Shown here: positions 7,695 through 25,327 of the stretch, one piece after another
Layout of the letters: each line of letters starts with the position of its first letter
Position numbering within the stretch: the first letter of the stretch is position 1
Notes under the pieces: model-generated
Seen by the model: the letters and a program-made list of their open reading frames with translations, nothing else
Databases searched by the model: none
Told to the model about the DNA's origin: nothing
Position numbers and translations under genes: made by a program
NCBI RefSeq assembly: GCF_000012905.2
Contig: NC_009007.1
Coordinates: forward strand, 65,018-90,931
Source of the DNA: Cereibacter sphaeroides 2.4.1
Lineage (GTDB): Bacteria; Pseudomonadota; Alphaproteobacteria; Rhodobacterales; Rhodobacteraceae
Direction of reading: 5' to 3'
DNA length: 25,914 bases

Positions 7695-7733
7695 TCCTTA
7701 ACCTTACTCGTTGATTTTATTACATAATTCTCA

Positions 7734-8714: not shown

Positions 8715-10997
8715 ATGTCGCACCTCCGCAAGGGCCAGCCGACACAGTTCGTCCGCGGCGGCCAGACCACGCAGCACTGGTGGCGCATGGCGGCGCAGGT
8801 GGTCCGCACCTCGCTCTTCGTCGCGCTGGCGGCCTTCACCCTCACCTACACGGCTCTCGTGCTTGCCAATTACGAGCTGCGCTACATGCGCGAGACCTTT
8901 GCGAGCTGGACCGCGCATTACAACGTCCGGCTGGGCCGGCCGGAGAAGATCATTTCTTACGTCGATCACCTCGACCGACGGCTCGAGCGGACGGCAGGAC
9001 AGATCGCGGCTGACCATCGGATGAACGCTCTTGCGGACGAGTATCGCCGCAATGCCTCGCTCTTCGCCTGGTATGCTCTCGTTCCGGCGGCCGCGGCGCT
9101 TCTGATCAGCACCGCCATTTTCGCCTGGGCCGGACAGCGGGTCGGGCAGAACGAACATGTGCGGGGAAGCCGCCTCATAGACCAGCGGGATCTCGCGCGC
9201 TGGTCCATGAGAAAGTGGAAGGCATACCAGAAGCGCTTCGGCCTCGGCCTGAAAAAGGGGCCACGCTACACAATCGCCGGCATCCCGTTCCCTCCGAACG
9301 CCGTGGAGGCGCAGACCGGGATCTTCGGAACGGTCGGGGTGGGCAAGACCAACGCCATCAAGGAGCTGCTGACCACCATCCGGGCACAGAACGGCCGAGC
9401 CATCATCTACGACCGCATGGGTGGCCTCGTCCGCGATTTCTACGATCCGGCCACCGACATTATCATCAATCCCTTCGACGCCCGATCACACATCTGGTCG
9501 CCGTTCGGCGAAGCCAGCACCCCGGAGGCTCTGGCGCAGATCGCCGAGGTCATGATCCCGCAGCGCCCCGGACAGAACGATCCTTTCTGGTCACAGACGG
9601 CGCGGCTGGTCTTCGAATATTCGGCGCGCTCACTCCTTCGCGCCAAGCGACCGACCAACGCAGACCTGCGCCGCGCGATCATGACGATCTCGGCCGAAGA
9701 GCTGGAGAAGCTGCTCGCAGGCACGCCGGGGGCTCATTTCTTCGGCAAGCACGTCGAGAAGACGTCGGCCTCGATCCGCGCAAACATGATTGCGGAGCTG
9801 CGGTTCCTCGAGTTTCTGCGTGACGACGGTGAGCTCTTTTCGGCGCGAGAGTGGGTCAAGTCGGAGCGACCCGGTTTCGTGTTTCTGACCGGCGATGCCG
9901 AACACTCGGCCGCGACCCGCAACATTATCTCCACCATCATCGAGGTATCGGCCAACGCGCTGATGACCTGCGAAGAGAGCCGCGATCCGAAGGTCTGGTT
10001 CTTCCTAGATGAGGTGCCGTCCCTCAACCGCCTGCCCTTCCTGCAATCGAAGCTGGCGGAGATCCGGCAGTTCGGGGGGGCTTTCGTGCTCGGCTACCAG
10101 GTCTTTGCGCAGCTGGAAGACATCTACGGAGAGAAAGGCGCGCAGGCCATCGCCGGCAACCTCAACAACCGCATCGTCTTCAACACGCCGGACGCGCGCA
10201 CGGCCAAGCTCTTTTCCGAAAGCCTCGGGTTCGAGGATGTGGTCGAACAACGGGAAAACCTGAGCTTCGGGGCGCACGAGTCTCGCGATGGCGTGGCCTT
10301 CATGAGCCAGCGCACGGAGCGGCCCATCGTCACCGCCTCTGAGATCCAGGCGCTGCCTCAGTTCGAGGCTCTGATCCGCTTTGCATATGACGCGCCAACT
10401 GCGCGCGTCCGGTTCGAGCCTGTCCAGGTGGAGCCGAAGGCCGAGAAGATCGTGCCCTATCAGGGTGGCGGCTTCGCTCTGGATGCCATGGATCCGCACA
10501 AGGCCCCTGCCCCGGCCCCGGCGGCAGATGAGGCGTCACTCGCCACGCGCTATGCCCCGGAGCTGCTTGGAAAGGTGCAGGAGGAACGGCGCGCACGGTT
10601 CGCGAGCTGGACCCCGGCGCAGCAGATCGCGGCCTTTGACGACTGGTTCGCAAAGGGCCTGCGACCGGACTTCGACGCTGCAGGCTTCTCCTTGCTGGCC
10701 CCTCTCGACGGCGTGCCGCCAGAAACGGCCTGGGACCACTATTACCGACAGCGCGTCCAGGGACACGATGAACCGACTTTCCGCATCACGCCCAACATGA
10801 TGCAGATGGTCACTAACCGCCCCCGCGCCCGGGAGGGTGCGGGTGCGGCGGTGGCCGAGGTGCCTGCCTATGCGGATCTTCGCCGCGCGGCCGAGGAAAA
10901 GATCATTCCCTTCCCGGGTCGCCACGCTGCGCCGCCCCCTGCCCGTCCAGCTGACCCTCTCACTGCGGGAATGGATGAGGAGGGCTCGCTGCTATGA
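8715..10997 (+). CDS. Type IV coupling protein (TraD/TrwB/VirD4-type)
   Basis: It has two N-terminal TM segments, Walker A GTVGVGKTN and Walker B VWFFLDEVPSL. Its stop overlaps the relaxase start as ATGA. Confidence 0.9.
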   Translation: MSHLRKGQPTQFVRGGQTTQHWWRMAAQVVRTSLFVALAAFTLTYTALVLANYELRYMRETFASWTAHYNVRLGRPEKIISYVDHLDRRLERTAGQIAADHRMNALADEYRRNASLFAWYALVPAAAALLISTAIFAWAGQRVGQNEHVRGSRLIDQRDLARWSMRKWKAYQKRFGLGLKKGPRYTIAGIPFPPNAVEAQTGIFGTVGVGKTNAIKELLTTIRAQNGRAIIYDRMGGLVRDFYDPATDIIINPFDARSHIWSPFGEASTPEALAQIAEVMIPQRPGQNDPFWSQTARLVFEYSARSLLRAKRPTNADLRRAIMTISAEELEKLLAGTPGAHFFGKHVEKTSASIRANMIAELRFLEFLRDDGELFSAREWVKSERPGFVFLTGDAEHSAATRNIISTIIEVSANALMTCEESRDPKVWFFLDEVPSLNRLPFLQSKLAEIRQFGGAFVLGYQVFAQLEDIYGEKGAQAIAGNLNNRIVFNTPDARTAKLFSESLGFEDVVEQRENLSFGAHESRDGVAFMSQRTERPIVTASEIQALPQFEALIRFAYDAPTARVRFEPVQVEPKAEKIVPYQGGGFALDAMDPHKAPAPAPAADEASLATRYAPELLGKVQEERRARFASWTPAQQIAAFDDWFAKGLRPDFDAAGFSLLAPLDGVPPETAWDHYYRQRVQGHDEPTFRITPNMMQMVTNRPRAREGAGAAVAEVPAYADLRRAAEEKIIPFPGRHAAPPPARPADPLTAGMDEEGSLL

Positions 10998-13900
10998 TGA
11001 GCGTGAGCAACGTCTCGGCCGGCGCCGCTGCCAGCGGATACTATCAGGCCGAAGGGTATTACGTCGCCGGAAGCCCTGAGGCAGAGGCGGCAGCTTCGTG
11101 GTTCGGCAGTGCGGCTGATGAGCTTGTCGCAATGGGTCAGGAAGAGTTTGCGGGGCGCGTGGACGACGCTGCGTTCTCGGCCATGCTCGACGGTCACGCT
11201 CCGCCGACCCAACGCGATGCCGAAGGCCATTGGAAGGAAGGTCAGACGCTCGGCCGCGTCGTGGACGGGGAGCGGCAGCACCGACCGGGGATCGACCTGA
11301 CCTTCTCCGCCTCCAAGTCGGTGTCGATCATCGGTCTGGTCGCTGGCGATGAGCGCGTGATCGCAGCCCATGACGAGGCGGTGAAGGCCGCCATGAGCTA
11401 CGTCGAAGAGAAGTTCGTCCGGACACGTCGGGAGGTGAACGGCGAGATCGTGGCGGTCCCCGGCAAGATGGTGGCCGGGCTTTTCCGCCATGATACGTCG
11501 CGGGCCCTCGATCCGCAGCTCCATACCCATGCCGTCATACAGAACATGGTCCTCGGCGAGGACGGCAAGTGGACCGCCCTCTCCAACGAGGAAATCTACC
11601 GCAACAAGATGCTGATCGGGGCGATCTACCGCAACGAGTTGGCGCAGAACCTCGAGCGGGCGGGATATGCCGTCGAGCGTGTCGGCCATGACGGCATCAC
11701 CGAGATCAAGGGCGTCCCGCGCGAGCTGATGGATGGCTTCTCGAAGCGCCGCAAGGAGATCGAGGCGGCCCTCGATGAGCGTGGGATCGAGAGGACGGCT
11801 GTAGATAGCGCATTGGCAGCCCTCGCCACCCGCAGGAACAAGCAGAAGGGCATCGACCGGGCAGAGCTGCGTGAAGCGTGGGAGAAGGAAGCGCAGTCCA
11901 TGGGCGTCTCCCTCGATCAGCTTCGCGAGCTCCGGCAGACAGCCACTCTGACGGCAGCCACGCGCCTGCCCGGCGTGACGCGAGACGGGATCGCTGCGCC
12001 CTCCCCTGCTGATCGCGCCGCGGCCGCCGTCGAGTTCGCGATTGCGCATGTGAGTGAACGCAATGCCGTCTACTCCGGCTCCGAGCTGGTCCGCGTGGCC
12101 CTGAGCCGAGCCAAGGATGTGGGGATCCGGCAGATCGAGGGCGCCATCGCGACCAAGGAAGAGACGGGCCGTCTGGTGCCGGTCCATGTCCATGCCTGGA
12201 ACGAGAAGCGCTCGCCCGATGCCATGACCCGCGGGGAGGGCTTCTCCGGGACGCTGAAGGCGATGGGCACCGCGCCGTATCAGAACGACCCTAGAAACCG
12301 CGACTCCTTCTTCGTGACCATCGAGACGCGGAACGGGGAGCAGACGGTCTGGGGTGCCGGCTTGCAGGCGGCGCTCGAACGGCAGGAAGCCAGTCCGGGC
12401 AGCCTTGTCCATCTGACGGTGCAGGGCCAGAAGCCCGTGACGGTGATCGGCGCCGATGGCAAACCGGTGTCCGCCCATCGCAATCTCTGGACGGCGGAAG
12501 TCATCGAACGCGCCTCGGAGCGGTCGGATCGCTCCAACGGCCCTCAGCCGCAGCGGGAGACGATCAGGCTCTATTCGGACGATGCCACCCTTGCCCTCGA
12601 GCGCATGGTGCTGGGCGAGTATCGGGCAGCCCGGCGTCAAGGCGGAGTGGAGTTGCCAGCTCGCCTGAGAGTCACTGGCGGGATCAAGATGAGCGGAGAA
12701 GCTCTTCTGCGTGACCGCCTTGACAAGACAACTCTGACGGAGGGCCAGAAGGAAGCGGTCGCACTCGGTCTCACAGGCAGAGGCCGGTTCGTCGGCGTGC
12801 AGGGGTATGCCGGCACGGGCAAAACGCACATGGTGGAAACCCTGCGCCGCTATGCCGAGCGGGCGGGCTTCACCGTGGAAGGCGCGGCACCGACGAACAA
12901 GGCCGCCGCAGAGCTCGCCTCGGCAGTGCCCGCGGCCGGCACCGTCGCCCGCTTCCTGCTCGCGGATGCTCCGGGCGACAAGAAGCGCTCCATCCTCGTG
13001 GTCGACGAGGCTGGGATGATCTCCACGCGCGACATGCACGCCCTGATGACCAAGGCAAACGAGCTCCGATACGCTCGGGTTATCCTCGTAGGTGACGTGA
13101 AGCAGCTCGACCCGGTGAGCGCGGGCTCGCCCTTCGCGCAGCTCCAGAAGGCGGGAATGCCGACCGCCATCATGGCCGACATTCAGCGCCAGAGAAACGA
13201 AGATGCCCGGAAAGCCGTGCTCCATGCCATCCGCGGCGAGGTCCGTGCTGCCTTCTCGCGGATCGAGGATCTTCGCACGCCAGAGAAGAACCAGAGCTTT
13301 ACCGGCGAGGTTGCCCGGGCGTGGCTCGGATTGCACAGCTCGGTGCGCGAGCGGACCGGGATTGTGGTTCTGACCAACCGCGTCCGGGGGGAAGTTAATG
13401 CCGCGATTCGCGACGAGTTGAAACGGGAACATCGGCTCGGCGCTCAGGATGTGACGGTCGCCAGTCTCACGCCGCTCTCGCTCACCCGCGCCGAAGCGCG
13501 CGAGGCGGCCAGCTACAAGGCTGGTGACGTGGTGATCTCGGTGCGCAGCGTGGAGGGGTTGGAGCGGGACAAACTCTACCGGGTTACATCCACCCTGCCC
13601 TATCAGAACAGCATCACCTTGCGTCCGGAGGGAGGCGGCGCCGAGGTCGCGCTGACACTCGGACATGGGTCGAAAGCTGCGGGATCGCTCGCCGCATTCG
13701 AGGTGGGCAAGCGCGAATTTGCGGCCGGCGATGAGGTCAAATTCGCGATCACCGACAAGGATTGCGGAGCGATTAACGGTGCGCGCGGCCGGATCACAAA
13801 GGTGACGGAAGCCCAGATCGACGTCACGCTGCACGGCGGGCGGAAGCTCTCCGTGCCCACGGATTCACTCGCCGCCCGTGGCCTAGACCATGCCTATGCG

Positions 13901-14329
13901 GCCACCGCACACGACTTTCAGGGCGCCACAGTGGACAGGATCATCGTGGGCATGACCCCCGATGAGCAGCTCACCAGCCAGAAGTCCTTCTACGTCAATA
14001 TCTCCCGCGCGCGGGACCATGTGACGCTTGTGACGACCGATCCCGGGAAGCTCGCTGATCGGATTCAGCGTGAGACCGGCGAACGTCCGGCCGCGCTCGA
14101 CGCCTACGCGCAGCGGCTCTCGGACGAGCGGAACGCGGCCGGAAAGGTGCCGCAGAATGAGCCCCCCTCCCCTGCCCGCGACCCTGACCGGGTGCCGCAA
14201 ATCCTGCGCGAGCAGGCGCAGAAACTGCGGCAGGCGGAGCCCCCGCAGGAGCGCACTGATCGGCAGGTGGAGCAATTCCTGGCGCAGTTCGAGGAGAAAC
14301 AGAAGGTGAAGGAAGGACCGATCCGGTGA
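10994..14329 (+). CDS. MOBF-family relaxase-helicase (TrwC/TraI-like)
   Basis: The N-terminal TrwC relaxase domain carries the histidine triad context HDTSRALDPQLHTHAVIQN. The central and C-terminal part is a RecD-like helicase (GYAGTGKT, ILVVDEAGM, VILVGDVKQL, AATAHDFQGATVD). Confidence 0.92.
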   Translation: MMSVSNVSAGAAASGYYQAEGYYVAGSPEAEAAASWFGSAADELVAMGQEEFAGRVDDAAFSAMLDGHAPPTQRDAEGHWKEGQTLGRVVDGERQHRPGIDLTFSASKSVSIIGLVAGDERVIAAHDEAVKAAMSYVEEKFVRTRREVNGEIVAVPGKMVAGLFRHDTSRALDPQLHTHAVIQNMVLGEDGKWTALSNEEIYRNKMLIGAIYRNELAQNLERAGYAVERVGHDGITEIKGVPRELMDGFSKRRKEIEAALDERGIERTAVDSALAALATRRNKQKGIDRAELREAWEKEAQSMGVSLDQLRELRQTATLTAATRLPGVTRDGIAAPSPADRAAAAVEFAIAHVSERNAVYSGSELVRVALSRAKDVGIRQIEGAIATKEETGRLVPVHVHAWNEKRSPDAMTRGEGFSGTLKAMGTAPYQNDPRNRDSFFVTIETRNGEQTVWGAGLQAALERQEASPGSLVHLTVQGQKPVTVIGADGKPVSAHRNLWTAEVIERASERSDRSNGPQPQRETIRLYSDDATLALERMVLGEYRAARRQGGVELPARLRVTGGIKMSGEALLRDRLDKTTLTEGQKEAVALGLTGRGRFVGVQGYAGTGKTHMVETLRRYAERAGFTVEGAAPTNKAAAELASAVPAAGTVARFLLADAPGDKKRSILVVDEAGMISTRDMHALMTKANELRYARVILVGDVKQLDPVSAGSPFAQLQKAGMPTAIMADIQRQRNEDARKAVLHAIRGEVRAAFSRIEDLRTPEKNQSFTGEVARAWLGLHSSVRERTGIVVLTNRVRGEVNAAIRDELKREHRLGAQDVTVASLTPLSLTRAEAREAASYKAGDVVISVRSVEGLERDKLYRVTSTLPYQNSITLRPEGGGAEVALTLGHGSKAAGSLAAFEVGKREFAAGDEVKFAITDKDCGAINGARGRITKVTEAQIDVTLHGGRKLSVPTDSLAARGLDHAYAATAHDFQGATVDRIIVGMTPDEQLTSQKSFYVNISRARDHVTLVTTDPGKLADRIQRETGERPAALDAYAQRLSDERNAAGKVPQNEPPSPARDPDRVPQILREQAQKLRQAEPPQERTDRQVEQFLAQFEEKQKVKEGPIR

Positions 14330-14958
14330 GGAAGGACAACATCAACGACCGCTACAGGTTCGTGCTCGGCCCCCGCGCCAAGGCTCTGACGGAGACGCAC
14401 TGTCCGCCCGGTGAGCTTCCCGGCAGCGATCATCTGGAGGCAGGGATCGAGGCGCTGCAGCAAGCCCTTGAGGTCGAGCGCGGGGTGCTGCGGCGCCTGC
14501 AGGACGAGTTCGATCGACTGGATGGTCGGATGGTCAACCTCGTCTCTGCGCACAACCATGGTCTCCGGGGGCTGATGATGATGACCGGACAGATGGTTCG
14601 CGAGCTCAACGTCATCCGGAAGATCCTGATCGTCTCGGCGGCATCGAACAATGAGCAGGCCGAACGGCTCTACGACAAGGCGGTGCCGGCGATCATGGAG
14701 ATGCGCGCCACGCTCGCTGTCTGGCGGGAGCGCGAAGGTCTCGAGGTGCCCGAGTTCTCCTTCGAGCAGGAGGAGCGGATCCTCCAGCAGCTCGTCCAGA
14801 ACCCGGCCGAGCACCGCCATCCCGATCATGGCGAGGAGCCGGAGACGCTTGGCGAGGCGCTTGCGGAGCAGGTGCAGCGGATCGGCGAAGCCTTCGATCC
14901 GAGCCTCACGGATGAGCGCCACGAACGTGAAATGGAGATGGGTGACGATGAGCGGTAA
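14326..14958 (+). CDS. Hypothetical acidic, probably coiled-coil protein, translationally coupled to the relaxase
   Basis: The GTG start overlaps the relaxase stop (GTGA). GGAAGGA lies about 8 nt upstream. No family was recognised. Confidence 0.5.
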   Translation: MRKDNINDRYRFVLGPRAKALTETHCPPGELPGSDHLEAGIEALQQALEVERGVLRRLQDEFDRLDGRMVNLVSAHNHGLRGLMMMTGQMVRELNVIRKILIVSAASNNEQAERLYDKAVPAIMEMRATLAVWREREGLEVPEFSFEQEERILQQLVQNPAEHRHPDHGEEPETLGEALAEQVQRIGEAFDPSLTDERHEREMEMGDDER

Positions 14959-14992
14959 GGCCGATCCGAGCGCTCAGAAGGCCGAAAACTAC

Positions 14993-15032
14993 CGTGGCAC
15001 GTCGTGCCACGCGCGTGGCACACTGTGCCACG
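14993..15032. promoter_or_regulatory. Two adjacent perfect 19-bp palindromes (CGTGGCAC-n3-GTGCCACG) separated by 2 bp
   Basis: Read directly: cgtggcac gtc gtgccacg / cg / cgtggcac act gtgccacg. They start 35 bp after the stop of the relaxase operon. They are candidate protein-binding sites, oriT inverted repeats or an operator. Confidence 0.5.
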
Positions 15033-15070
15033 GCCCCGAAAAACAACGTAAATACAGCGCGTTGGGAGCC

Positions 15071-15093
15071 GGGGGCAAATTACGCCCCCTTTT
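15071..15093 (+). terminator. Rho-independent terminator of the coupling protein-relaxase operon
   Basis: GGGGGC-aaattac-GCCCCC stem-loop followed by TTTT. Confidence 0.6.
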
Positions 15094-15130
15094 AAGACGA
15101 AAAGCCTTTATTTATAAAGGCTTGAAGGCA

Positions 15131-15967
15131 ATGGGCAGCTTGCTGCGTCAGGTGTGTCCTCTTCAGACCGGAGAGGCAGCCGTAAGGCTGCCGATCCGAG
15201 GCCTCCTCGCCCTCGCCGTCGCAGGCGGATGCCTGCTCCTCGGCCCCTGCCCCGTCTCGGCCGAGGCTTGGAAAGCCTCGGCCGAGACCACCTGGGCGAG
15301 CGGGTCCTCCTTCAGTCCGCCCGCGGATCGCCGCCAGCCTGGCCCCGGTTCATCCTTCCTCGAAGCGCAGGCCAGCTCATCCTTCGCGCTCGTGCCGAGG
15401 GCCGCCCGCCAGAAGAAAAGCCGGGCCTTCGTCATGCCGACCGACCGCGATGAGTTCGTGCGAATCCGTGCGCTGGTTCATCACGCCGAAAGCGGCGCGG
15501 CCGGCTATGACGATTACCACCGAAGCGCACCCGTGCCCCCGCCCCGCGCTCCCTCGACCATGACGCTCGACCAGATCCGGCAATGGATCGCCGCTACGCC
15601 GGGGCAGCAACATGCCATCGGCCGCTATCAGATCATCCCCTCCACCTTGGAAAGCCTGGCCTCGCGCGCAACCCTCCCGGGCTCCACGCTCTTCAGCGCT
15701 CCGGTTCAGGACAGCATGGCCAGCATCCTCATTCTCGACGCTGGCTATGTGGAGCTGAAAAATGGCGCGATCACGCTCGACAGGTTCATGGACAACCTCG
15801 CCCGGATCTGGGCTGGCTTCCCCATGGCGAGCGGGAAGTCCGCCTATGAGGGCGTGGCCGGCAACAGAGCCACGATCAGCCGCAAATTCTACGCAGAGCG
15901 GATGGCCGAAATCTTCCCCGTAGAGGCCCGTAGAGACCTTCGGGCTACCGAGGTGGCGGCAAAGTAG
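15131..15967 (+). CDS. Secreted lambda-lysozyme-like muramidase/lytic transglycosylase (GH104-type domain)
   Basis: The C-terminal domain aligns by eye with phage lambda R (HHAESG vs AWSEGT, GRYQ, F..P.QD, IWAGFP vs IWASLP). The N-terminus is signal-like (LLALAVAGGCLLLG). The part of the track ORF upstream of 15131 overlaps the previous gene and is rejected. Confidence 0.7.
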   Translation: MGSLLRQVCPLQTGEAAVRLPIRGLLALAVAGGCLLLGPCPVSAEAWKASAETTWASGSSFSPPADRRQPGPGSSFLEAQASSSFALVPRAARQKKSRAFVMPTDRDEFVRIRALVHHAESGAAGYDDYHRSAPVPPPRAPSTMTLDQIRQWIAATPGQQHAIGRYQIIPSTLESLASRATLPGSTLFSAPVQDSMASILILDAGYVELKNGAITLDRFMDNLARIWAGFPMASGKSAYEGVAGNRATISRKFYAERMAEIFPVEARRDLRATEVAAK

Positions 15968-16060: not shown

Positions 16061-16516
16061 GCGACCGCACCGCCGCTTCGCCGCACCGCCGCACATCCGC
16101 ATGGCCGCCTCACCGCACCGCCGCACGTCCGCATGGCCGCCTCACCGCACCGCCGCACGTCCGCATGTCCGCATCACCGCACCGCCGCACGTCCGTATGG
16201 CCGCCTCACCGCACCGCCGTATGTCCGCATGGCCGCCTCACCGCACCGCCGCATGTCCGCATGGCCGCCTCACCGCACCGCCGCACATCCGCATGGCCGC
16301 CTCACCGCACCGCCGCACATCCGCATGGCCGCCTCACCGCACCGCCGCAGGTCCGCATGGCCGCCTCACCGCACCGCCGCAGGTCCGCATGGCCGCCTCA
16401 CCGCACCGCCGCACGTCCGCATGGCCGCTTAATCGCATGTCCGCACCGACGCATGTCCGCTTCGCCGCTTTGCCGCATGTCCGCATCTACGCCTTGACGC
16501 ATGTCCGCATCGCCGC
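16061..16516. repeat. 57 consecutive in-phase octamers NNNNCCGC with a 32-bp higher-order unit (11 copies, 16099-16450); candidate partition centromere and par operator
   Basis: GCATGGCCGC (variants GCATGTCCGC at 16163 and GTATGGCCGC at 16195) recurs at 16099, 16131, ... 16419 with exact 32-bp spacing. The octamer register is unbroken for 456 bp. The array ends 38 bp before the parA start. Confidence 0.85.
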
Positions 16517-16553
16517 CATAACGGATCGACAATCGAGCAGCCTGGAGACGGCA

Positions 16554-17285
16554 ATGAAAGTGATAACCGCTTACAGTCACAAAGGCGGAACCGGGAAGAC
16601 CACGGCGTTGATGATGCTGGCGTCCGCCATAGAAGCCCGAGGGCAGTCCGCACTATTGGTAGACTGCGACCCTCACCAGTCCTTCAAGGCTTACGAGACC
16701 CACAGCAAGAGCACGTCCCCGGCTATCTGGTCCGACAGGATGGACGTGATCTATCTGCACTATGAGGCGACGAAGGTCGCTGTCCTTGAACAGACGCTTC
16801 TCGACGCTGATGAGGGGGGCAGGTTCGACTACTGCCTCTTGAACCTCGCCGGGGTAGATCATCCCTTCAACCGCCACGTCCTGCGCTATGCCGAGCTGAC
16901 GCTCCTGCCGTTCGCGCCTGCGGCGCTCGACATGATGGAGCTGCCTGGGGCGCTTGATGTCCTCAGACAGCTCGGTGACCAAGGCGAGGTAGGGCAGGCA
17001 CGCGTTCTTTTGACAAAGATGCGCTCAAAGATGACCAGCGCTCAGACCGGCTACATTGACGCCGTGTTGGCCGGTTTCCCTGTGATGAAGACCCAGATCC
17101 GCGAAACGGCTGTCTTGGGCGACATTGTGATGCGAGGCCTTTTAGGAAAGGCCATCGCCGCGTGGGAGCCGGAGGCGAGCGGCCTGCAAAAGATGGAAAT
17201 CGCCCGTCTCCGCGAGGCGCTGGAAGAGTGTCAGGCACTGCTGGCGGAGGTCGATTCAATCATTGAGCTTGGAGAAGCGGCATGA
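16554..17285 (+). CDS. parA: ParA-family partition ATPase (no N-terminal HTH, type Ib-like)
   Basis: MKVITAYSHKGGTGKTT is a deviant Walker A motif. GGAGA lies 5 nt upstream of the ATG at 16554. The 151 codons upstream in the track ORF are translation of the repeat array. Confidence 0.9.
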   Translation: MKVITAYSHKGGTGKTTALMMLASAIEARGQSALLVDCDPHQSFKAYETHSKSTSPAIWSDRMDVIYLHYEATKVAVLEQTLLDADEGGRFDYCLLNLAGVDHPFNRHVLRYAELTLLPFAPAALDMMELPGALDVLRQLGDQGEVGQARVLLTKMRSKMTSAQTGYIDAVLAGFPVMKTQIRETAVLGDIVMRGLLGKAIAAWEPEASGLQKMEIARLREALEECQALLAEVDSIIELGEAA

Positions 17286-17975: not shown

Positions 17976-18165
17976 GCCCCTCGGCGAGAGCGGGGGGGAG
18001 GGGTCAAGGGGCCGCGCGGAGCCGCCCGGAGCCACGCGCAGCAAAGCGAGCATGGCGAGGACGGCGAGCACGGCGGGCGCTTGCGCCCCTTGCCCTTGAC
18101 CCCGATGGGGGCGGAGCCCCCCTGACGGCGCGCGTCTGCGCGCCATGCTCCTCACCACGGCGAAG

Positions 18166-19621
18166 CCACGCTGGCCGCCCACAATCTCGCCTGCGATCCC
18201 GGAGGGGTGACGGCGCGGCAGGTGCCGACGTGCCGGAAGGGCCGAAGGCCCCTAGGCTCGTCGGTGCCTGACGCGGCGGCGCGCCGGAGGGGAGGGCTCG
18301 TGCCACGCCGGCCGCCCGCAGATCTCGCCCGCAATCCCGGAGGGGTGACGGCGCGGCAGGTGCCGACGTGCCGGAAGGGCCGAAGGCCCCTAGGCTCGTC
18401 GGTGCCTGACGGGACGGCGCGCCGGAGGGGAGGTCTCGAGGCACGCCGGCCGCCCGCAGATCTCGGCCGCGATCCCGGAGGGGTGACGGCGCGGCAGGTG
18501 CCGACGTGCCGGGAGGGCCGAAGGCCCCTAGGCTCGTCGGTGCCTGACGCGGCGGCGCGCCGGAGGGGAGGTCTCGAGGCACGCCGGCCGCCCGCAGATC
18601 TCGCCCGCGATCCCGGAGGGGTGACGGCGCGGCAGGTGCCGACGTGCCGGGAGGGCCGAAGGCCCCTAGGCTCGTCGGTGCCTGACGCGGCGGCGCGCCG
18701 GAGGGGAGGTCTCGAGGCACGCCGGCCGCCCGCAGATCTCGCCCGCAATCCCGGAGGGGTGACGGCGCGGCAGGTGCCGACGTGCCGGAAGGGCCGAAGG
18801 CCCCTAGGCTCGTCGGTGCCTGACGGGACGGCGCGCCGGAGGGGAGGGCTCGTGCCACGCCGGCCGCCCGCAGATCTCGGCCGCGATCCCGGAGGGGTGA
18901 CGGCGCGGCAGGTGCCGACGTGCCGGGAGGGCCGAAGGCCCCTAGGCTCGTCGGTGCCTGACGCGGCGGCGCGCCGGAGGGGAGGGCTCGTGCCACGCCG
19001 GCCGCCCGCAGATCTCGCCCGCGATCCCGGAGGGGTGACGGCGCGGCAGGTGCCGACGTGCCGGAAGGGCCGAAGGCCCCTAGGCTCGTCGGTGCCTGAC
19101 GGGACGGCGCGCCGGAGGGGAGGGCTCGTGCCACGCCGGCCGCCCGCAGATCTCGGCCGCGATCCCGGAGGGGTGACGGCGCGGCAGGTGCCGACGTGCC
19201 GGGAGGGCCGAAGGCCCCTAGGCTCGTCGGTGCCTGACGCGGCGGCGCGCCGGAGGGGAGGTCTCGAGGCACGCCGGCCGCCCGCAGATCTCGGCCGCAA
19301 TCCCGGAGGGGTGACGGCGCGGCAGGTGCCGACGTGCCGGAAGGGCCGAAGGCCCCTAGGCTCGTCGGTGCCTGACGGGACGGCGCGCCGGAGGGGAGGG
19401 CTCGTGCCACGCCGGCCGCCCGCAGATCTCGGCCGCGATCCCGGAGGGGTGACGGCGCGGCAGGTGCCGACGTGCCGGGAGGGCCGAAGGCCCCTAGGCT
19501 CGTCGGTGCCTGACGCGGCGGCGCGCCGGAGGGGAGGGCTCGTGCCACGCCGGCCGCCCGCAGATCTCGGCCGCGATCCCGAAGGGGTGACGGCGCGGCA
19601 GGTGCCGACGTGCCGGAAGGC
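18166..19621. repeat. Tandem array of a 138-bp unit, about 10.5 copies, non-coding
   Basis: The phase marker CCCGGAGGGG occurs at 18198, 18336, 18474 ... 19440, with a variant CCCGAAGGGG at 19578. Spacing is exactly 138 bp with no indels. A degenerate remnant extends back to about 18119. Confidence 0.95.
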
Positions 19622-19711: not shown

Positions 19712-20575
19712 TCAGCCTGCCTTCAGCTCGGCCATGCGCTCGGTGAGCATCCAGAGCGCGCGGTTGAGGCCGCGGGACTGGTCGATGCCGGCCACCTCGC
19801 GGACGGTCTGGCGGCGGAAATGGCCGCTTTCGGTCCGGGTGCGGCCGCGCATCCCTCCGCGCAGGGTGTTCTCCTGCACCACGTTGAAAGCGGTCCACAG
19901 GTCGGTGGCGCGGTCGGTCGAGCGCCGCGGCCGCAGGAGCTCGGCCGGCGTGATCGGCGCTTCCTTGCCCTCGGCGGTGCCGGGGAAGCGAAGGCCGTGC
20001 GCGGCTTCGGCCAGGATCTCGCGCTCCCGGTCCTGCAGCTGGATAGCCTTGAACCGGTCCACCTGCTCGGTCACGCGGGGGGCCTCCTCAAGCACGCGAT
20101 AGGCGCCCTCGATGACTTCGCCAATGGCATTGCCGCTATGGCGGACCTTCACCTCGTCGAAGGTCTCGCCGCACATGAGGCCGTTGGCGCAGACAAACCG
20201 AAAGAACCCCGGGATCATCTGATAGGCGCTCGTGCCGTCATTCGCGTTGACCAGCACGATCTCGAACGCCTCGCCCTCGGCATTGACGATGCCGCGGTGA
20301 CGCAGGCGCAGCATGTGCTTCGTAAACTCGGCCTTGCCCTCGACTCGGGTGCGGGCCTGCTGAGCAAAGAACGGTTCGAATCCTTCCGCGCGCAGGCCAT
20401 CCAGCACGGTGACGGTGGGGACAGGAGCGAACCGGGCGCTGCGGCTCTCGTGAGCCTCGGTCGCAAAGATCGAGGGAACGCGCGCCATCAGCTCGTCATT
20501 CGTCAGCGGCTGATCGCCCCGGCTGTAGGCCGCGCCGCCGTTGCTCATCCCGCGCATATAGAAATGATAGCTCAT
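19712..20575 (-). CDS. DUF932-domain protein (common in plasmid and ICE transfer or leading regions)
   Basis: PLTNDELMARVPSIFATEAHESRSARFAPVPTVTVLDGLRAEGFEPFFAQQARTR....FTKHMLRLRH matches the DUF932 N-terminal signature. AAGGAGA lies 5-6 nt upstream of the ATG. Confidence 0.9.
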   Translation of the reverse strand: MSYHFYMRGMSNGGAAYSRGDQPLTNDELMARVPSIFATEAHESRSARFAPVPTVTVLDGLRAEGFEPFFAQQARTRVEGKAEFTKHMLRLRHRGIVNAEGEAFEIVLVNANDGTSAYQMIPGFFRFVCANGLMCGETFDEVKVRHSGNAIGEVIEGAYRVLEEAPRVTEQVDRFKAIQLQDREREILAEAAHGLRFPGTAEGKEAPITPAELLRPRRSTDRATDLWTAFNVVQENTLRGGMRGRTRTESGHFRRQTVREVAGIDQSRGLNRALWMLTERMAELKAG

Positions 20576-20894
20576 CGTCGTCTCCTTCGGTGCGCAACGG
20601 TGGGGTCTTTGCCCTCATCCGCCAGTGGGGCGCGGCCTCTCCGATCTGACCTCTGGAAAGCACCGCGTGCTTTCCGGAGGACAGAGCGGGGAGGGCGAAG
20701 CCCTGCCTGCGGCCACGGGGCCGGATGAGACAGGGGCCGGTGACGGGGAAAATTGGGGGGCACCCGCGCGGGCTCGCCCGCGTGGGGGGAGCCGATTTTC
20801 TCCGGCGCCGGTGACGCGCCCCAGGCGCGGCATCACAACCCCTGTTCAGCCGGAACCGGGGATGTCAGGCGGATCCAGCACCTGCAAAAAGTGT

Positions 20895-20947
20895 CGCGCC
20901 GCTCCCGCGGCGCGTCCTTGCCAACTCGATCCGCGCCTTCGCGGATC
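20895..20947. repeat. Diverged partial third copy of the two-hairpin 5' part of the 202-bp element
   Basis: CGCGCCGC-tccc-GCGGCGCG is followed 13 nt later by GATCCGCG-cctt-CGCGGATC TCCA. The second hairpin arms and the TCCA are identical to those in the copies at 22243 and 23321. Confidence 0.5.
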
Positions 20948-21643
20948 TCCATCGACCTCACCGCATCGAGGAGAGCTGCAGCCCGATCGGCAAGGCCCGC
21001 GCTCTCAGCTCGCCCGCGCGAGGATCGTCACCCGAATGGGCGGAGACAGGGCGTCCTATCGGACCATGCACGGCTGCGACATGACCGGCTCGGAGAGACG
21101 GGCAGGGCGCCCGCCGCGCAGGGACGAGAGGGCGTCATGGCTCCGGTCCCGGCCGCTTGCGGACGGGACTAGAGCCGTGCCCCGGCTACGCCGGGGTCGC
21201 GCCCAGACATCCCCTACATGCGCAAGGAAATGCCTCCTGCCTAATCATCACTACATGCGCCTATCCGAATACATTAAAGTGTCCGCCCCTGAGAAAGAGG
21301 TAAGGAGCCGGAGTATCAAGTCCCATCTACTAACCGTCTGATACCAAATGACTAATTCAAGGCAGCCACCAAGTATAGCGTAAATGCCAACGGACTGAGG
21401 ATTGTCGGTCAGCCGGGTCAAGCAAACAATCTTCGTTCGCAGGCGCCAACTGGTGGATAAATCTTGGGCCTCGTGTTTGACCGTAAAGTTTCCGAGGCTG
21501 TATATCTGGCACGTCCACTAAAAGGACGCGGCCCGCTCTGCCCTGGCCGGCAGGCGGGCCGCTCGATCTCGACGCGGGCCAAGATCAGGTCACGAGTTAT
21601 GTCTGACACAGGCCCGCACCTTCGTAAACTGTTAGGAGGTGTC

Positions 21644-21802
21644 ATGAAGGCATACCAAGCGAAGCGGGCTCGGATCCGCTTTAACAATCCGATGACGGGC
21701 TGGGCGATAGACGCCGAGGGACACGCAGCCATCTTTGGCGTTATCGTCATCATGACGGGGCCGCCGCTCATCGCCATGGCGTTGAAGCTCCTCCACCCGT
21801 AG
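21644..21802 (+). CDS. Possible 52-aa membrane peptide (MKAYQAKRARIRFNNPMTGWAIDAEGHAAIFGVIVIMTGPPLIAMALKLLHP)
   Basis: AGGAGG lies 5 nt upstream of the ATG. It has one hydrophobic helix and is followed by a 10-bp-stem hairpin. The upstream part of track ORF 21464..21802 has no support. Confidence 0.35.
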   Translation: MKAYQAKRARIRFNNPMTGWAIDAEGHAAIFGVIVIMTGPPLIAMALKLLHP

Positions 21803-21820
21803 CAAAGGCACAGCGCAATC

Positions 21821-21846
21821 GTCAGCCCGGCTCCCGCCGGGCTGAC
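21821..21846. terminator. GC-rich hairpin between convergent genes (GTCAGCCCGG-ctcccg-CCGGGCTGAC), no T-tract
   Basis: A perfect 10-bp stem, read directly, located between the 21644..21802 (+) and 21872..22162 (-) ORFs. Confidence 0.4.
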
Positions 21847-21871
21847 CCTGCGACAAACAGCGGGCATTGGA

Positions 21872-22162
21872 TCAGCGCGCTGAAAGGAACCACAGCCGCT
21901 CGGCCGGGATGAACTCGGCAACATCCGTCCAGCCGAAGGCACGCTCCGATATAAAGTCGGCCATGGCCAATAGGACGTGCGCCTCAACCTGCGGCCGGCT
22001 CGAGCAGGGTGCCCAAAATTGCCCGGCGAGCACACGACCGTCTGGCAGAACGTGAGCTCGAGCGCGGATTGGCGGCTCGAGGATGAGCACCTCGTGCTCG
22101 CTTTCACTCACACGGTCCACGATGACATTCTGCTCCATGGCGGGACGATCTCCCATGGGCAT
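21872..22162 (-). CDS. Hypothetical protein (the start may be the third Met at 22138)
   Basis: An ORF with GC-rich third codon positions. GGAGA lies upstream of the Met at 22138. No family was recognised. Confidence 0.45.
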   Translation of the reverse strand: MPMGDRPAMEQNVIVDRVSESEHEVLILEPPIRARAHVLPDGRVLAGQFWAPCSSRPQVEAHVLLAMADFISERAFGWTDVAEFIPAERLWFLSAR

Positions 22163-22210
22163 TTAGATGACGTTACGGCGGGCCATATCGCCGGCGGCAC
22201 GACCCTTTTA

Positions 22211-22412
22211 CAGCGCCGCGCGGAGCGCGGCCGGAGTATCTTGATCCGCGTCCTCGCGGATCTCCACTGTCGGCGCCCGTCTTATCCAGCCCGCCATGGC
22301 CTTCGGCCGTGGCGGGCCCTGCAGGTGCGGAGCTGAACGCAGCAATCACGCGGCGCAGAGAAGCGGAGCACCTGTGGGTAAGACGGGCGCCGCGGCCGAG
22401 AGCTCTCGGCCG
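22211..22412. repeat. 202-bp structured repeat, copy A
   Basis: It aligns without gaps to 23289-23490 (constant offset of 1078) with about 10 mismatches. It contains at least four hairpins and a 17-bp long-range stem. Confidence 0.9.
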
Positions 22413-22654
22413 AGCGGCGGGCAGAAGGAACTTATCTGCCTGCCCGTCCGCGCGCTCGTGTGGATCTCACGTCGACGCGGGATGCGGCCGGAGGCCGCGA
22501 TCGCTCGCGGTCGATACGGGTCCGGCCTGTGCGTCATCCGGCCAGGCCATAGCGGCAATCCGAAGCGCGCGCGCTGAGAAAACGGGACGGCCCGAGCGTG
22601 ACCCATGCTCATTCTCGGCATGCAACAGGACGGCTTGATTGCCAAGAAGGGCGT

Positions 22655-23203
22655 TTAGACTAGTTGAAAGCCGAAGGCCCTCCTCGCGTCAGGGTCTCCC
22701 CAGCGCGAGTCGAGGTAGTTATTTAGCAGTCGATAAAGTAGCTCGTGAACAAGGTGGATGTCTGTGGAGGCCGATCCGTCAAAGCGGCAGATCACGGTTT
22801 CCCCGCTGATCCTCACTTCTACGTTTCCAGAAGCACGCACGCACTCGACCTTAGCTTGCACAATCTGCTTAGGAAATGCGTTCGGTGCCGGCTCCAGAAC
22901 AATGCCCAGACCGAACTCAAACGTGCCATCGCTGCAGCTGACGACGGCATCGTTGAAGGCGTCTTCGTCACTGATAGTTCCATCGGATCTCACACGGTAG
23001 AGCGGCACATACCGGTGATACGTTGTGGTGCCATCCCTTTTAGCCTCGTAATACTTCGGCATACCGAGAAAATTCTGCAAACCGTTTGCCACGAGCGCTG
23101 CGAACCGGTTGTTCTCCCGCACAAACTCACGCGTGGCCTTCTCCCGTTCGCAGAATTTTTGACGGATAATCTCGTATTTCGTCCCGCTCTGCTCGTCACT
23201 CAT
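22655..23203 (-). CDS. Hypothetical 182-aa protein, lower GC than its surroundings
   Basis: A clean ORF whose codon usage is visibly richer in A/T-ending codons than the backbone genes. It is bracketed by the two 202-bp repeats. No family was recognised. Confidence 0.6.
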   Translation of the reverse strand: MSDEQSGTKYEIIRQKFCEREKATREFVRENNRFAALVANGLQNFLGMPKYYEAKRDGTTTYHRYVPLYRVRSDGTISDEDAFNDAVVSCSDGTFEFGLGIVLEPAPNAFPKQIVQAKVECVRASGNVEVRISGETVICRFDGSASTDIHLVHELLYRLLNNYLDSRWGDPDARRAFGFQLV

Positions 23204-23288
23204 CGTCCGTAGCCCTTGTTATCCCGGTTTACGTTGGTCAGTTTACTGTTCCGCTTGGGCACTGTCACCGTTCGCACCCGCCCGATTG

Positions 23289-23490
23289 CAGCGCCGCGCG
23301 GAGCGCGGCCGGAGTATCTTGATCCGCGTCTTCGCGGATCTCCACTGTCGGCACCCGTCTTATCCAGCCCGCCATGGCCTTCGGCCGTGGTGGGCCCTGC
23401 AGGTGCGGAGCTGAACGCAGCAATCACGCGGCGCAGAGAAGCGGAGCACCCGTGGGTAAGACGGGCACCTTGGCAGAGGGCTCTCTGCCG
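23289..23490. repeat. 202-bp structured repeat, copy B
   Basis: See copy A. This copy is in direct orientation. Confidence 0.9.
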
Positions 23491-23543
23491 CCGCTGCCAC
23501 TGGACGGGGTGCCGCGTGCAGCTCCTTGAGTGCGGCATCGTTC

Positions 23544-24761
23544 TCATCCCACACGGCGCTGGAGCGCTATCAGTGATCCATGAAGGTTCAGGCTTCCGTT
23601 TCGAGCTCGTTCCGTCATGGCCCGCAGCATCCCGCCCGGGCTCCAGACGGGGTTCACCGGGCGATAGCGGTTGGCATCGAGAACTAGCACGCACAGCGCT
23701 GCTGGGAGATCGCCCATTGCATCGGCCGCATCGTCCCAGGCGCTGGCGTTGACACCAAGTGCTGGCAGGATCGCGATCGCCGCCTGAATGAAATCGTGCG
23801 CCGTGAGGGTGCTACCGCTACGTCGGCCGGCATCCAGATACATCTGCATGTCGGGAGACGCTGCCTCATAAAGCTGCGCCGGGGTGAAGGTTTCCAAATA
23901 TCCGGGCTTGAACCCTCGGTCGGCCAAGCCACGCTTTTTTTCGTAGTACGATGCCGTGCCGAACGGCGCGGCATCTGTCTTAATGCAGTCCGCCCGCTTG
24001 CGGGCGGTCCGCTCAATGGCGGAGGAGCCGCTACAGACAGGATTTTCTTTAGTTGTATCTTGTATATGAGGCCGGAAGGAGTTTTCCGGCACGCCGGAAG
24101 AATCTTGCTGCATTTCGAGGAGCTGGAGCGCCTCGCGCGTAGCGTTATCCACACATCGAAGGAGGGTGCGAAGCTCGCTCTCGCCCAAGCCGTCGTAGCG
24201 CCGAGGCATGGTCTCAAGGATCTCGGCCGGGCCGGGAGCCACTTTGTCCAGAGCGGCAAGACGACTGAGGGTCTGGCTCAGGATCCGGCGCGACGCCGAC
24301 ACGCGACGCTTCAGGATCTGACGCTCACGCTCTTCCGCCTCCAGCTGCTCCACAATGCGTAGCAAATGCGGGAACGATTCGATCAAGGGAGCAAACGAGA
24401 TGCCCTGGATAAGCTCGCCGCCGGCAAAGCGACCGCGACTGCCGTCAGCGGCAAGGTTTCGCTTTAGAAGGCCAAGCCGCTCGAGGCGCGCCTCCTGATA
24501 GCGCAGCGCGCGTGGTGTCACTCCGAGGCGCGCCGCCACTTGGGCCTGTTGCATGAAGCATACCGCGTCCCGCGTCTCATCCCGCCAGTCGCTGGGCCTC
24601 GTCGCCTGGATCATGACCAACAACGCACGCAGGCACGCGCTCGAGAGGCCCAAAGGCGCGCTGCACGCAGTGACTAGCCGCTCCACATCGCTGCGCTGAA
24701 ATCGACCGGGCAGGGTCGGGTAGGATTCTTCGGGTTCGGCCCGAAGCTGGTTCGTTAACAT
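23544..24761 (-). CDS. repC: RepC-family plasmid replication initiator, without adjacent repA/repB
   Basis: Blocks aligned by eye to RepC of repABC plasmids: VCFMQQAQVAARLGVTPRALRYQEARLERLGLL, QGISFAPL, RPHIQDTTKENP (compare ERHIQNSNPES), and LGVNASAWDDAADAMG...SPGGMLRAMTERARNGSLNL. The start is set at 24761 (AGGAAAGAGC before the ATG), giving 405 aa. Confidence 0.88.
   Translation of the reverse strand: MLTNQLRAEPEESYPTLPGRFQRSDVERLVTACSAPLGLSSACLRALLVMIQATRPSDWRDETRDAVCFMQQAQVAARLGVTPRALRYQEARLERLGLLKRNLAADGSRGRFAGGELIQGISFAPLIESFPHLLRIVEQLEAEERERQILKRRVSASRRILSQTLSRLAALDKVAPGPAEILETMPRRYDGLGESELRTLLRCVDNATREALQLLEMQQDSSGVPENSFRPHIQDTTKENPVCSGSSAIERTARKRADCIKTDAAPFGTASYYEKKRGLADRGFKPGYLETFTPAQLYEAASPDMQMYLDAGRRSGSTLTAHDFIQAAIAILPALGVNASAWDDAADAMGDLPAALCVLVLDANRYRPVNPVWSPGGMLRAMTERARNGSLNLHGSLIALQRRVG
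24041..24153. other. Candidate oriV inside repC: an AT-rich stretch plus a perfect DnaA-box consensus
   Basis: GATTTTCTTTAGTTGTATCTTGTATATG (24041-24068) is by far the most AT-rich stretch of the gene. TTATCCACA lies at 24145-24153. In characterised repABC replicons the origin lies within repC. Confidence 0.4.
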
Positions 24762-24958: not shown

Positions 24959-25327
24959 CTGTAGTGTCGCGTGTCCTTCCGAATCTGGCCGCCACCATGG
25001 CGTAGATTGCTGTATACGCCGATCTTGCCCCGAAATGTAGCAAAGACCACAAGCACCTGCGCCTAGCAAGGCGTGGGTGTCTTCATAATGAGCTGCGCAC
25101 GTCGGTTGTCCGCTCAGGGGGCGCTGCCCCCCCGCGATGCCGATGGCCGAGCGCAAGCGTCGGCGGGCCGGTATCCCCACCTTCCTCCGCCTGCGGCTCC
25201 GTGCAGGCGGGTGATCCCCCTCCGGCCCGCCGAGCCAGGCATCGCACCCCCCGCGTTCGCCACGCGGCAGACCGACATGGGCGCGTCCCGCGACCATGCC
25301 GATCAGCACGGATTTTGGAGAACCGTC

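Follow-up and report, generated by a model that had tools for sequence, protein, structure and literature searches.

Two folded direct repeats of a Cereibacter sphaeroides conjugative plasmid as candidate single-stranded DNA initiation elements, and their link to a widespread plasmid element, M1

Introduction

What do two nearly identical, elaborately folded non-coding repeats do on a conjugative plasmid, and in which form of the DNA would they do it? The question is raised by a stretch of 25,914 nucleotides from Cereibacter sphaeroides 2.4.1 (NC_009007.1, positions 65,018 to 90,931 of the forward strand; this whole stretch is called the window below), in which repeat copies A and B lie between the relaxase gene and the F-type tra operon, amid a DUF932 gene, repC and small open reading frames (ORFs). 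The plasmid is conjugative; its relaxase belongs to the MOBF class and its mating-pair system is F-type (MPF_F). An earlier reading of the same letters (the original prediction) had offered three identities for the pair: a structured RNA, an element acting as single-stranded DNA (ssDNA) on the strand transferred during conjugation (the T-strand), or a repeat resembling a miniature inverted-repeat transposable element (MITE). In the present analysis the T-strand option is the best supported, mostly by context, the MITE option finds no support, and a structured RNA is retained as a rival.

Elements of the second sort have precedents, since Frpo1/Frpo2 (ssiD) of F and ssi1-3 of ColIb-P9/pESBL are class 1 ssDNA promoters (Masai & Arai 1997; PMC9849209; PMC12672017; PMC11541004). 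We propose, as a plausible though still tentative reading, that A and B are single-stranded T-strand initiation elements of the Frpo/ssi kind. The context in question consists of surroundings of the leading-region type, the orientation of A and B, which is that of a second element named M1, and the folding of M1 on the strand that carries the nic motif in four plasmids. M1 itself is, whatever its mechanism, a strongly covarying, strand-specific and widely distributed non-coding element that is new to Rfam.

Results

Extent and predicted fold of the repeats

An independent repeat finder recovers A and B as gap-free direct repeats of 210 nt with 94% identity, which extends the ungapped 202-bp pair of the original prediction by 8 nt on the left; the roughly ten differences it had listed come to exactly 10 inside those 202 bp. 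All of the helices drawn earlier (H1, H2, the long-range stem, H3 and the terminal hairpin; coordinates in Table 1) are found in the minimum-free-energy (MFE) DNA fold of the plus strand. The compensatory change from C:G in A to A:T in B is likewise present, at 22397:22408 in the terminal hairpin, where by our rough estimate (12 differences, about 70 pairs) some 0.08 such events would be expected by chance. The claim that an A:T pair of the same hairpin becomes G:T does not survive, as position 22401 sits in the 4-nt loop and cannot pair. Both of the GGCGCC to GGCACC changes do occur in copy B; read as disruptions of the plus-strand stem, these A:C oppositions are equally G:T pairs on the minus strand. 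The wobbles are for this reason not confined to the plus strand, as had been supposed: the core helices hold five G:T pairs compatible with the plus strand and two compatible with the minus strand (or three, counting a weak inner stem).

The plus-strand DNA fold of copy A is predicted at -82 to -83 kcal/mol, with a z-score of -7.0 to -9.4 against dinucleotide shuffles, and that of copy B at -69 to -70 kcal/mol (z -4.5 to -5.7); on the minus strand the corresponding scores are -6.2 to -6.8 for A and -3.4 to -4.5 for B. In A, in B and in the related copy of the Cereibacter azotoformans pORIO plasmids, the plus strand is the more stable by 3-7 kcal/mol of MFE, and strand by strand the z-scores are -9.4 versus -6.8 for A and -5.7 versus -4.5 for B. 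A third, diverged and partial copy, H1'-H2', unreported in the original prediction, lies at 20897-20947, inside M1.

M1 is a strand-specific, covarying element of many plasmids

M1 fills a 637-nt spacer whose plus-strand fold has a z-score of -11.2. It is 98% conserved in pORIO2 and pORIO3, where it stands ahead of a different gene, and pieces of it, unannotated and often several to a plasmid, are found in plasmids of Paracoccus, Ruegeria, Dinoroseobacter, Roseobacter, Sulfitobacter, Leisingera and Shinella; in all, its spread covers plasmids of at least eight alphaproteobacterial genera. When 12 copies from 8 lineages were aligned, compensatory double changes were seen in 33 of the 52 pairs of the consensus fold. 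The plus strand folds better in every copy of the 12, the gain in stability being 9-29 kcal/mol under DNA parameters and 13-35 kcal/mol under RNA parameters. Shuffle z-scores, which control for composition, also favour the plus strand in all 8 lineages (-7.0 versus -2.1 in C. sphaeroides and -4.3 versus 0.0 in Paracoccus, for example). Counts of wobble pairs in the MAFFT alignment vary with the strand structure used (49 G:T versus 44 A:C on the union of the two structures, 13 versus 4 on their intersection), and we therefore relied on the per-sequence energies and shuffle z-scores. Conserved blocks of M1 are GGACAGAGCGGGGAGGGCG, GGACAGAGCGGGGAGGGCGAAGCCC and GGATGTCAGGCGGA; its hairpin 2 contains, by eye and in 6 of the 8 lineages, a paired xxGACA-N16-18-AAAwTy island that could be a reconstituted promoter.

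In every locus inspected M1 is immediately upstream of a gene that is minus-sense with respect to its own orientation. These genes, of kinds that typify plasmid establishment regions, encode DUF932, large ParB-like, ArdC-like zincin, DUF3768, DUF736 or DUF4942 proteins or are small ORFs, and SSB and toxin-antitoxin genes lie nearby, oriented alike. Since the fold is specific to the plus, that is the template, strand, M1 is not a 5'-untranslated-region structure of the downstream mRNA. No Rfam family corresponds to it in a scan of the window at gathering score or of 20400-21900 at E up to 1, and literature searches aimed at such elements yielded no description of A, B or M1.

The M1 folding strand and the transferred strand

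For RP4- and RSF1010-type origins it is established which way the nic motif reads on the nicked strand and that the relaxase genes enter last. Canonical nic motifs stand beside the relaxase operon, on the M1 folding strand, in four plasmids, which represent about two independent lineages. Two are MOBP plasmids: p.D of C. sphaeroides, with CCTATCCTG|C 35 nt upstream of mobC and M1 4.2 kb into the leading side, and pORIO6, with TATCCTGC upstream of mobC. The others are MOBQ plasmids, in which the motif lies between mobQ and a divergent mobilization gene: the Sulfitobacter W002 plasmid, with TAAGTGCGCCCT ((T)AAGTGCGCCCT), and Roseobacter pROLI18, with AAGTGCGCCCT. Because the nic motifs are on the same strand, the M1 folding strand is the transferred strand in these four plasmids, and it also templates the genes downstream of M1. 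The small MOBP/VirB-type plasmids p.D and pORIO6 carry two or three co-oriented M1 copies in the first few kilobases past the nic motif (at 6001-6347, ~7300-7700 and ~9600-10000 in p.D, and at 32515-32915 and 33856-34225 in pORIO6), and the gene downstream differs from copy to copy (DUF4942, DUF945/DUF932 and others).

In the window plasmid a candidate origin of transfer (oriT) sits just downstream of mobF, between the mobF-orf198 pair and a lytic-transglycosylase-like ORF. Its further palindromes are GGGGGC...GCCCCC and AAGCCTTTAT/ATAAAGGCTT, and it is conserved in pORIO2/3, in pRSKD131B and in a Rhodovulum plasmid; the ORF annotated there at 14912-15967 probably starts at 15131. From this origin the plus strand would be the T-strand, and A and B would lie 7-8 kb into the leading region. 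Queries with the repeat, with M1 and with the candidate oriT find identical sequences in the 153-kb conjugative plasmid of C. sphaeroides 2.4.1-type strains.

A and B share a module with M1

Past a conserved GGATGnCAGGCGGA block, every M1 runs through an A-rich tract, H1 (followed by a T-run on the minus strand), a spacer, a GC-rich perfect H2 and TCnnCTGTC-like bases. Several genera then have a long-range stem after H2, such as ACTGTCTCT...AGAGACAGT in Leisingera. The parts of A and B follow the same order, namely H1, H2, TCCACTGTC and long stem. The H1-H2-TCnnCTGTC module opens the distal half of M1 in plasmids of Cereibacter, Leisingera, Ruegeria, Dinoroseobacter, Paracoccus, Sulfitobacter and Roseobacter, and one M1 of p.D has an H2 identical to that of A and B. 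By inspection, the H2 stems vary by lineage yet stay complementary (GATCCGCG, AATCCGCGCG, GATCGCGG, CCGGC, ACCGCGT); the MAFFT alignment of H1-H2 across genera is structurally too inconsistent for pair counts or a covariance model, so that this covariation is one seen by inspection only. A and B thus have the module, the orientation and the plasmid region in common with M1, whereas they are without its proximal half (hairpins 1 and 2, with the GGACAGAGCGGGGAGGGCG and GGATGTCAGGCGGA blocks) and without the T-run after H1, and in sequence their long-stem domain is not detectably homologous to M1. We regard A and B as a lineage-specific variant on the M1 distal module, a view that comes from architecture and not from full-length homology.

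The prominence of H2 also bears on a different explanation, in which this perfect 8+8 palindrome (GATCCGCG-N4-CGCGGATC) would be a double-stranded site, either an operator for a dimeric plasmid regulator (for instance a ParB/KorB-like repressor of establishment genes) or a recombination site, the rest of the repeat merely hitch-hiking. The palindrome occurs three times in the window, where 0.11 would be expected, always between genes and upstream of minus-sense ones; H2-like palindromes occupy the same place in M1 of other genera, beside large ParB-like operons, and breakpoints of homology between plasmids fall directly after H2 (query position 379). Such a site, however, would leave the conservation over 210 nt, the long-range stem and the z-scores of A and B unexplained, and a stem that varies and remains complementary is what a hairpin predicts and a protein-binding site predicts only loosely. 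We consider a double-stranded site improbable.

Two other identities suggested by H2 were dropped. It opens with TGATCC, as does the RpoE (sigma-E) promoter consensus TGATCC-N15/16-CGTA (PMC5036791, PMC5507510), but CGTA is absent at the required spacing, and an RpoE promoter was rejected on that ground. Mimicry of a TrwC-type nic site by H2 and the 8 nt that follow it was dropped because an identical H2 is held by p.D, a MOBP plasmid.

A narrow family in changing gene contexts

In a BLAST search of 72,556 plasmids the A/B element was found in Cereibacter only, that is in C. sphaeroides and, with one copy each at 94% identity, in C. azotoformans pORIO2 and pORIO3. A pattern for H2 followed by TCCA gave 11 matches in 185,579 species genomes (one per species), all of them chance hairpins by nhmmer, and the long-stem pattern CGTCTTATCC-N65-95-GGTAAGACG gave 24 matches in JGI metagenomes, none homologous; no diverged homologue of the long-stem domain appeared in the plasmids, species genomes or metagenomes searched. 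From the Cereibacter-only BLAST result and the chance-level pattern matches, the family is therefore narrow and young.

Within this narrow range the element stands in three flanking gene contexts in two species, next to unrelated genes. What pORIO2/3 share with the window is non-coding modules only (20572-21207, 98%; 22193-22575, 89%; 25114-25321, 95%), the adjacent genes being different, which argues that A and B are not a mere local duplication. The extension of copy A belongs to the second of these modules, and pORIO2 and pORIO3 differ in it by a 2-nt indel, which speaks against its being coding.

A functionless scar of recent duplication or recombination, perhaps a MITE-like selfish repeat in which a GC-rich palindromic stretch was copied once or twice among Cereibacter plasmids, would suit the very narrow distribution across the plasmids, species genomes and metagenomes covered. 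It would also suit copies that are all at least 89% identical and whose single-sided stem changes are mostly transitions, as under neutrality. We give this explanation only a slim chance, given the three contexts with unrelated neighbours, the module and orientation shared with the deeply conserved M1, and the extreme folding stability. On the MITE side there are no terminal inverted repeats, the repeat finder returned no inverted-repeat pairs of at least 30 nt in the window, and the flanks of A and B have no duplicated bases in common, so that target-site duplications, which the original prediction had proposed to look for in related plasmids, are not seen; moreover, the homology with C. azotoformans runs 160 nt beyond the right end of copy A.

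The pORIO copy also brings in the structured RNA that we keep as a rival. There the copy and its extension of about 160 nt stop some 30 nt before the ATG of a plus-sense gene for an SOS-response-associated peptidase (SRAP; MCNLYS...). In a plus-sense RNA, H1-H2 would be the promoter or operator (TTGATC-N18-CACTGT, with GATAGT in pORIO), and the long stem and terminal hairpin would form a small RNA (sRNA) of about 135 nt or the 5' leader of a plus-sense gene; from copy B, this RNA would run antisense to repC at the 3' end of that gene. The better folding of the plus strand fits this picture, as do the position before the SRAP gene and the pORIO sequence TTGATC-N18-GATAGT, which by eye agrees at 8 of 12 positions. 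The terminal hairpin could serve as a terminator, since sRNA terminators of R. sphaeroides can be free of a U-run (PMC5036791). In the window copies, on the other hand, the promoter match is poor (about 6 of 12, and unreported by the promoter scan), the -35-like sequence is not conserved in the H1-H2 modules of M1 type, neither copy is followed by a plus-sense gene, and no Rfam family matches. M1, whose plus-strand fold is antisense to all of its downstream genes and has neither a plus-sense promoter nor a terminator, is also easier to understand as ssDNA. We judge a plus-sense RNA unlikely.

Neighbouring genes and other features of the window

The ORFs orf88 and orf182 are minus-sense and start 64 and 77 nt from A and B, respectively, so the plus strand is their template strand. 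Neither has a match in Pfam, PHROG, NCBIfam or PADLOC. Homologues of orf182 are accessory genes in a phage morphogenesis cluster and beside an integrase, and no A/B-like element was found at those loci. Downstream of mobF come orf198, the lytic-transglycosylase-like ORF, parA, a small ORF, a 138-bp tandem array and the DUF932 gene; then M1, a plus-sense ORF of 52 aa, orf88, copy A, orf182, copy B and repC. Past repC, outside the window, lie a pilin-like gene and traL-E-K...traG on the plus strand.

Table 1. Features discussed, in window coordinates (position 1 is the first letter of the window)
Feature	Position	Strand	Remarks
Type IV coupling protein (T4CP)	8787-10997	+	
MobF relaxase	10994-14329	+	TraI/TrwC-type
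Candidate oriT	14960-15130	+	two inverted repeats GTGGCAC-n3-GTGCCAC, A/T-rich tract, further palindromes
DUF932 gene	19712-20575	-	directly downstream of M1
M1	20576-21207	+	structured non-coding super-element, ~640 nt; directly upstream of DUF932 gene
H1'-H2' module inside M1	20897-20947	+	diverged third copy
orf88	21872-22138	-	hypothetical
Repeat copy A	22203-22412	+	three-way junction (P0, H1, H2), long-range stem around H3, terminal hairpin
Closing stem P0, ACAG/CTGT	22210-22213 with 22267-22270	+	4 bp; H1 and H2 become arms of a three-way junction
H1 hairpin	22215-22231	+	GCCGCGC-gga-GCGCGGC
H2 hairpin/palindrome	22243-22262	+	GATCCGCG-tcct-CGCGGATC, then TCCACTGTC; module common to M1 of other genera
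Long-range stem	22271-22292 with 22374-22392	+	encloses H3 (22290-22316) and inner stems
Terminal hairpin	22394-22411	+	18-nt palindrome; carries the compensatory pair
Copy A extension	22413-22575	+	non-coding; 89% conserved in pORIO2/3; not in copy B
orf182	22655-23203	-	hypothetical
Sigma-70-like match	23240-23268	-	GTGACA-17-TAAACT; between copy B and orf182; ~1.1 expected by chance in the scanned region
Repeat copy B	23281-23490	+	94% identical to A
repC	23544-24761	-	stop codon 54 nt before copy B

This gene order would also allow A and B to act in minus-sense mRNA, as 3'-untranslated or intercistronic elements of a repC-orf182-orf88 transcript that serve as exonuclease barrier, processing site or weak terminator, much like repetitive extragenic palindromes (REP) or bacterial interspersed mosaic elements (BIME). 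Copy B begins 54 nt past the repC stop and copy A 243 nt past that of orf182, and the largely palindromic hairpins would form in minus-sense RNA too (z -6.8 and -4.5). In every genus H1 of M1 type is followed by a T-run on the minus strand, which is the form of an intrinsic terminator (H1' was called as a terminator-like site on that strand, from 20914 to 20895), and in p.D the H2-H1 pair stands directly past the stop of the upstream DUF945 gene. A and B, however, are without that T-run, and no Rho-independent terminator-like site was called in either copy on either strand; the minus-strand fold is consistently the less stable, two G:T pairs common to all copies turn into A:C mismatches on it, and in pORIO the copy does not follow any minus-sense gene. 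A role in minus-sense mRNA appears to us quite unlikely.

Several other features of the window deserve mention in their own right. The C-terminal half of the 52-aa ORF (21644-21802, in the region 21603-21846) is hydrophobic, the protein is conserved in pORIO2, and the ORF is preceded by a CTGACA-16-TAAACT promoter match and followed by a hairpin; a possible identity is a small Hok/Flm-type membrane toxin, such as occurs in the leading region of F. At 16065-16486 there are 13 tandem copies of a 32-bp unit, CCGCATGGCCGCCTCACCGCACCGCCGCACGT, with 90% matches and an 8-bp sub-period; this array, which looks like a centromere or iteron array, starts upstream of the annotated parA (16293-17285) and extends into it, and the start of parA may be mis-annotated. 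The 138-bp array (18165-19620) comprises 10.6 copies at 96% identity, each with a hairpin of about 45 nt, and the plasmid record carries no annotation for it. It folds with no strand preference, and the long ORFs on both of its strands may simply be due to a period divisible by three.

The non-coding module at 25114-25321, 95% identical in pORIO2/3, folds with a z-score of -5.4 on the plus and -3.9 on the minus strand, and its 60-nt core (25169-25231) occurs several times per plasmid, at 82-91% identity, in plasmids of Sphingobium, Novosphingobium, Paracoccus, Shinella, Methylobacterium and Ensifer. Finally, the 153-kb 'plasmid a' (NZ_CP015289.1) holds the repC-pilin-traL...traG block twice, at 73.9-95.2 kb and at 117.7-139 kb. 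The tra proteins of the two blocks have largely the same WP accessions and the RepC proteins differ; TraB, TraV and TraC of the second block are fragmented. This suggests a cointegrate or a large duplication.

Discussion

We propose that A and B act in cis, as DNA, within the establishment (leading) region. They would be active while the plus strand of the window exists as a single strand, namely when it has just entered a recipient by conjugation as the transferred strand. In this state each copy would fold into a compact multi-hairpin body and would signal single-strand initiation, giving RNA synthesis a place to start on an ssDNA template. The RNA might be the transcript of the minus-sense gene just 5' of the element (orf88 for A and orf182 for B), a primer for the complementary strand, or both. 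Once the DNA has become double-stranded, the structure and its activity would be lost. Three steps of this scheme are ones that we infer: that the plus strand is the one transferred in the window plasmid, that A and B share the mode of action of M1, and that RNA synthesis begins at them.

A number of observations weigh against this proposal. M1 of the two MOBQ plasmids is in the part that enters late and not in the leading part. For the window plasmid the MOBF nic motif TGCGTNNNGTNTNNNGC gave a single match, at chance level, and the nic site was not found. An F-like inverted repeat is present upstream of the pilin/traL genes (near 26.69 kb of locus L004), and were oriT located there, near the pilin gene, the minus strand would be transferred; A and B would still be leading, 3-4 kb from oriT, but on the complementary strand, which would not be transferred. 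For orf88 and orf182 the folding strand does act as the template, but this does not extend to pORIO, where the copy has no minus-sense gene to its left and the plus-sense peptidase gene is on the opposite side. No sigma-70-like pair of -35 and -10 boxes (at least 9 of 12 positions) is found inside A or B on either strand, and none is apparent by eye in the stems, although reconstituted boxes are what defines Frpo. In the predicted folds of A and B the strand preference is modest, the variant pairs are mixed (five G:T versus two or three A:C), and between the two copies there is one compensatory pair only.

With A, B and M1 taken together, it is conceivable, and a more speculative step than the reading of A and B themselves, that they make up an alphaproteobacterial class of T-strand ssDNA promoters and/or priming signals, unrelated to Frpo/ssi in sequence and architecture. 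The A/B type of this class, being without recognisable sigma-70 boxes, would be recognised through its structure or by a plasmid or host factor. A primase-type (G4-like) signal is an alternative inside the same model. In A and B a CTG follows 4 nt after H2, with a similar arrangement in Leisingera, Ruegeria and Roseobacter pROLI83 and TTTG in Dinoroseobacter; a trinucleotide is weak evidence for such a signal.

The documented cases of early expression from ssDNA are from enterobacterial IncF and IncI plasmids only, where it drives anti-defence and SOS-suppression genes and offers a target for blocking plasmid spread. If our proposal is true, the principle would be general across distant backbones (MOBF, MOBP, MOBQ) and hosts. 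It would provide handles, in sequence and in structure, by which leading regions could be located in plasmids of Rhodobacterales and Rhizobiales together with their early genes (among them DUF932, DUF3768, DUF736, ArdC-like, orf88 and orf182), and a case in which recognition of ssDNA may not need reconstituted -35/-10 boxes. Taken by themselves, A and B are a narrow and young family with thin direct evidence, and their interest lies mostly in the link to the broadly distributed and strongly supported M1.

How, then, do the repeats compare with known systems? For STAXI and other Rfam motifs that neighbour ssb or antirestriction genes, a function as ssDNA has been proposed, and A and B are like them in being repeated, structured, non-coding elements beside the establishment genes of a mobile element, with ssDNA action possible. 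They differ in that A and B have no Rfam match at gathering score and chance-level ones only at E up to 10. The Rfam scan that the original prediction had recommended gave no match at gathering score over the whole window and nothing credible in 21800-23900; the best sub-threshold scores on the repeat were 17.6 bits for xerDC (72.5 needed) and 13 bits for Bp2_287 (70 needed). The G4-type ssi signals for DnaG primase, reportedly the subject of work by Nomura, Masai and colleagues in 1991, are stable template-strand hairpins with a 5'-CTG-3' a few nucleotides 3' of the hairpin. The sequence TCCACTGTC after H2 contains such a CTG, a resemblance that consists of one trinucleotide and not of homology.

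Closest in kind are the ssDNA promoters, reported so far for IncF and IncI plasmids of enterobacteria; an insect metagenome and a Streptococcus element have supplied further candidates (PMC11541004, PMC12672017). In the BLAST search of 72,556 plasmids, among them F and IncI1, copy A matched Cereibacter only and so has no detectable similarity to Frpo or ssi; within IncI1/IncF plasmids there are several classes of ssDNA promoter that are themselves unrelated in sequence (PMC12672017). In contrast to Frpo, which is one long imperfect hairpin, A and B are predicted to combine a long stem with a three-way junction that bears two short, perfect GC hairpins; they are without a recognisable reconstituted -35/-10 or UP element and reside in a GC-rich alphaproteobacterium. 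The class 2 and 3 promoters of pESBL and F were found by mining for hairpins upstream of early-induced operons, an approach like ours, and were validated by RNA-seq and 5' rapid amplification of cDNA ends (5' RACE) in transconjugants, with reconstituted -35/-10 boxes, whereas A and B are predictions (PMC12672017).

Frpo1 and Frpo2 form a pair of direct repeats with 92% identity, separated by 5 kb, and each stands ahead of leading genes whose template is the T-strand; their activity is confined to ssDNA, and recombination uses them as substrates (PMC9849209). A and B are likewise non-coding elements of a few hundred nucleotides, in what would be an establishment region, and near-identical direct repeats (94% versus 92%). 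A highly stable stem-loop of ssDNA, by which Frpo/ssi elements are recognised, is predicted for both copies in the form of a very stable multi-stem fold, whose strand is the template of the downstream gene (orf88 or orf182), and the modules form a recombination-prone mosaic. In the four plasmids with nic motifs, M1 has the same geometry of strand and gene as Frpo.

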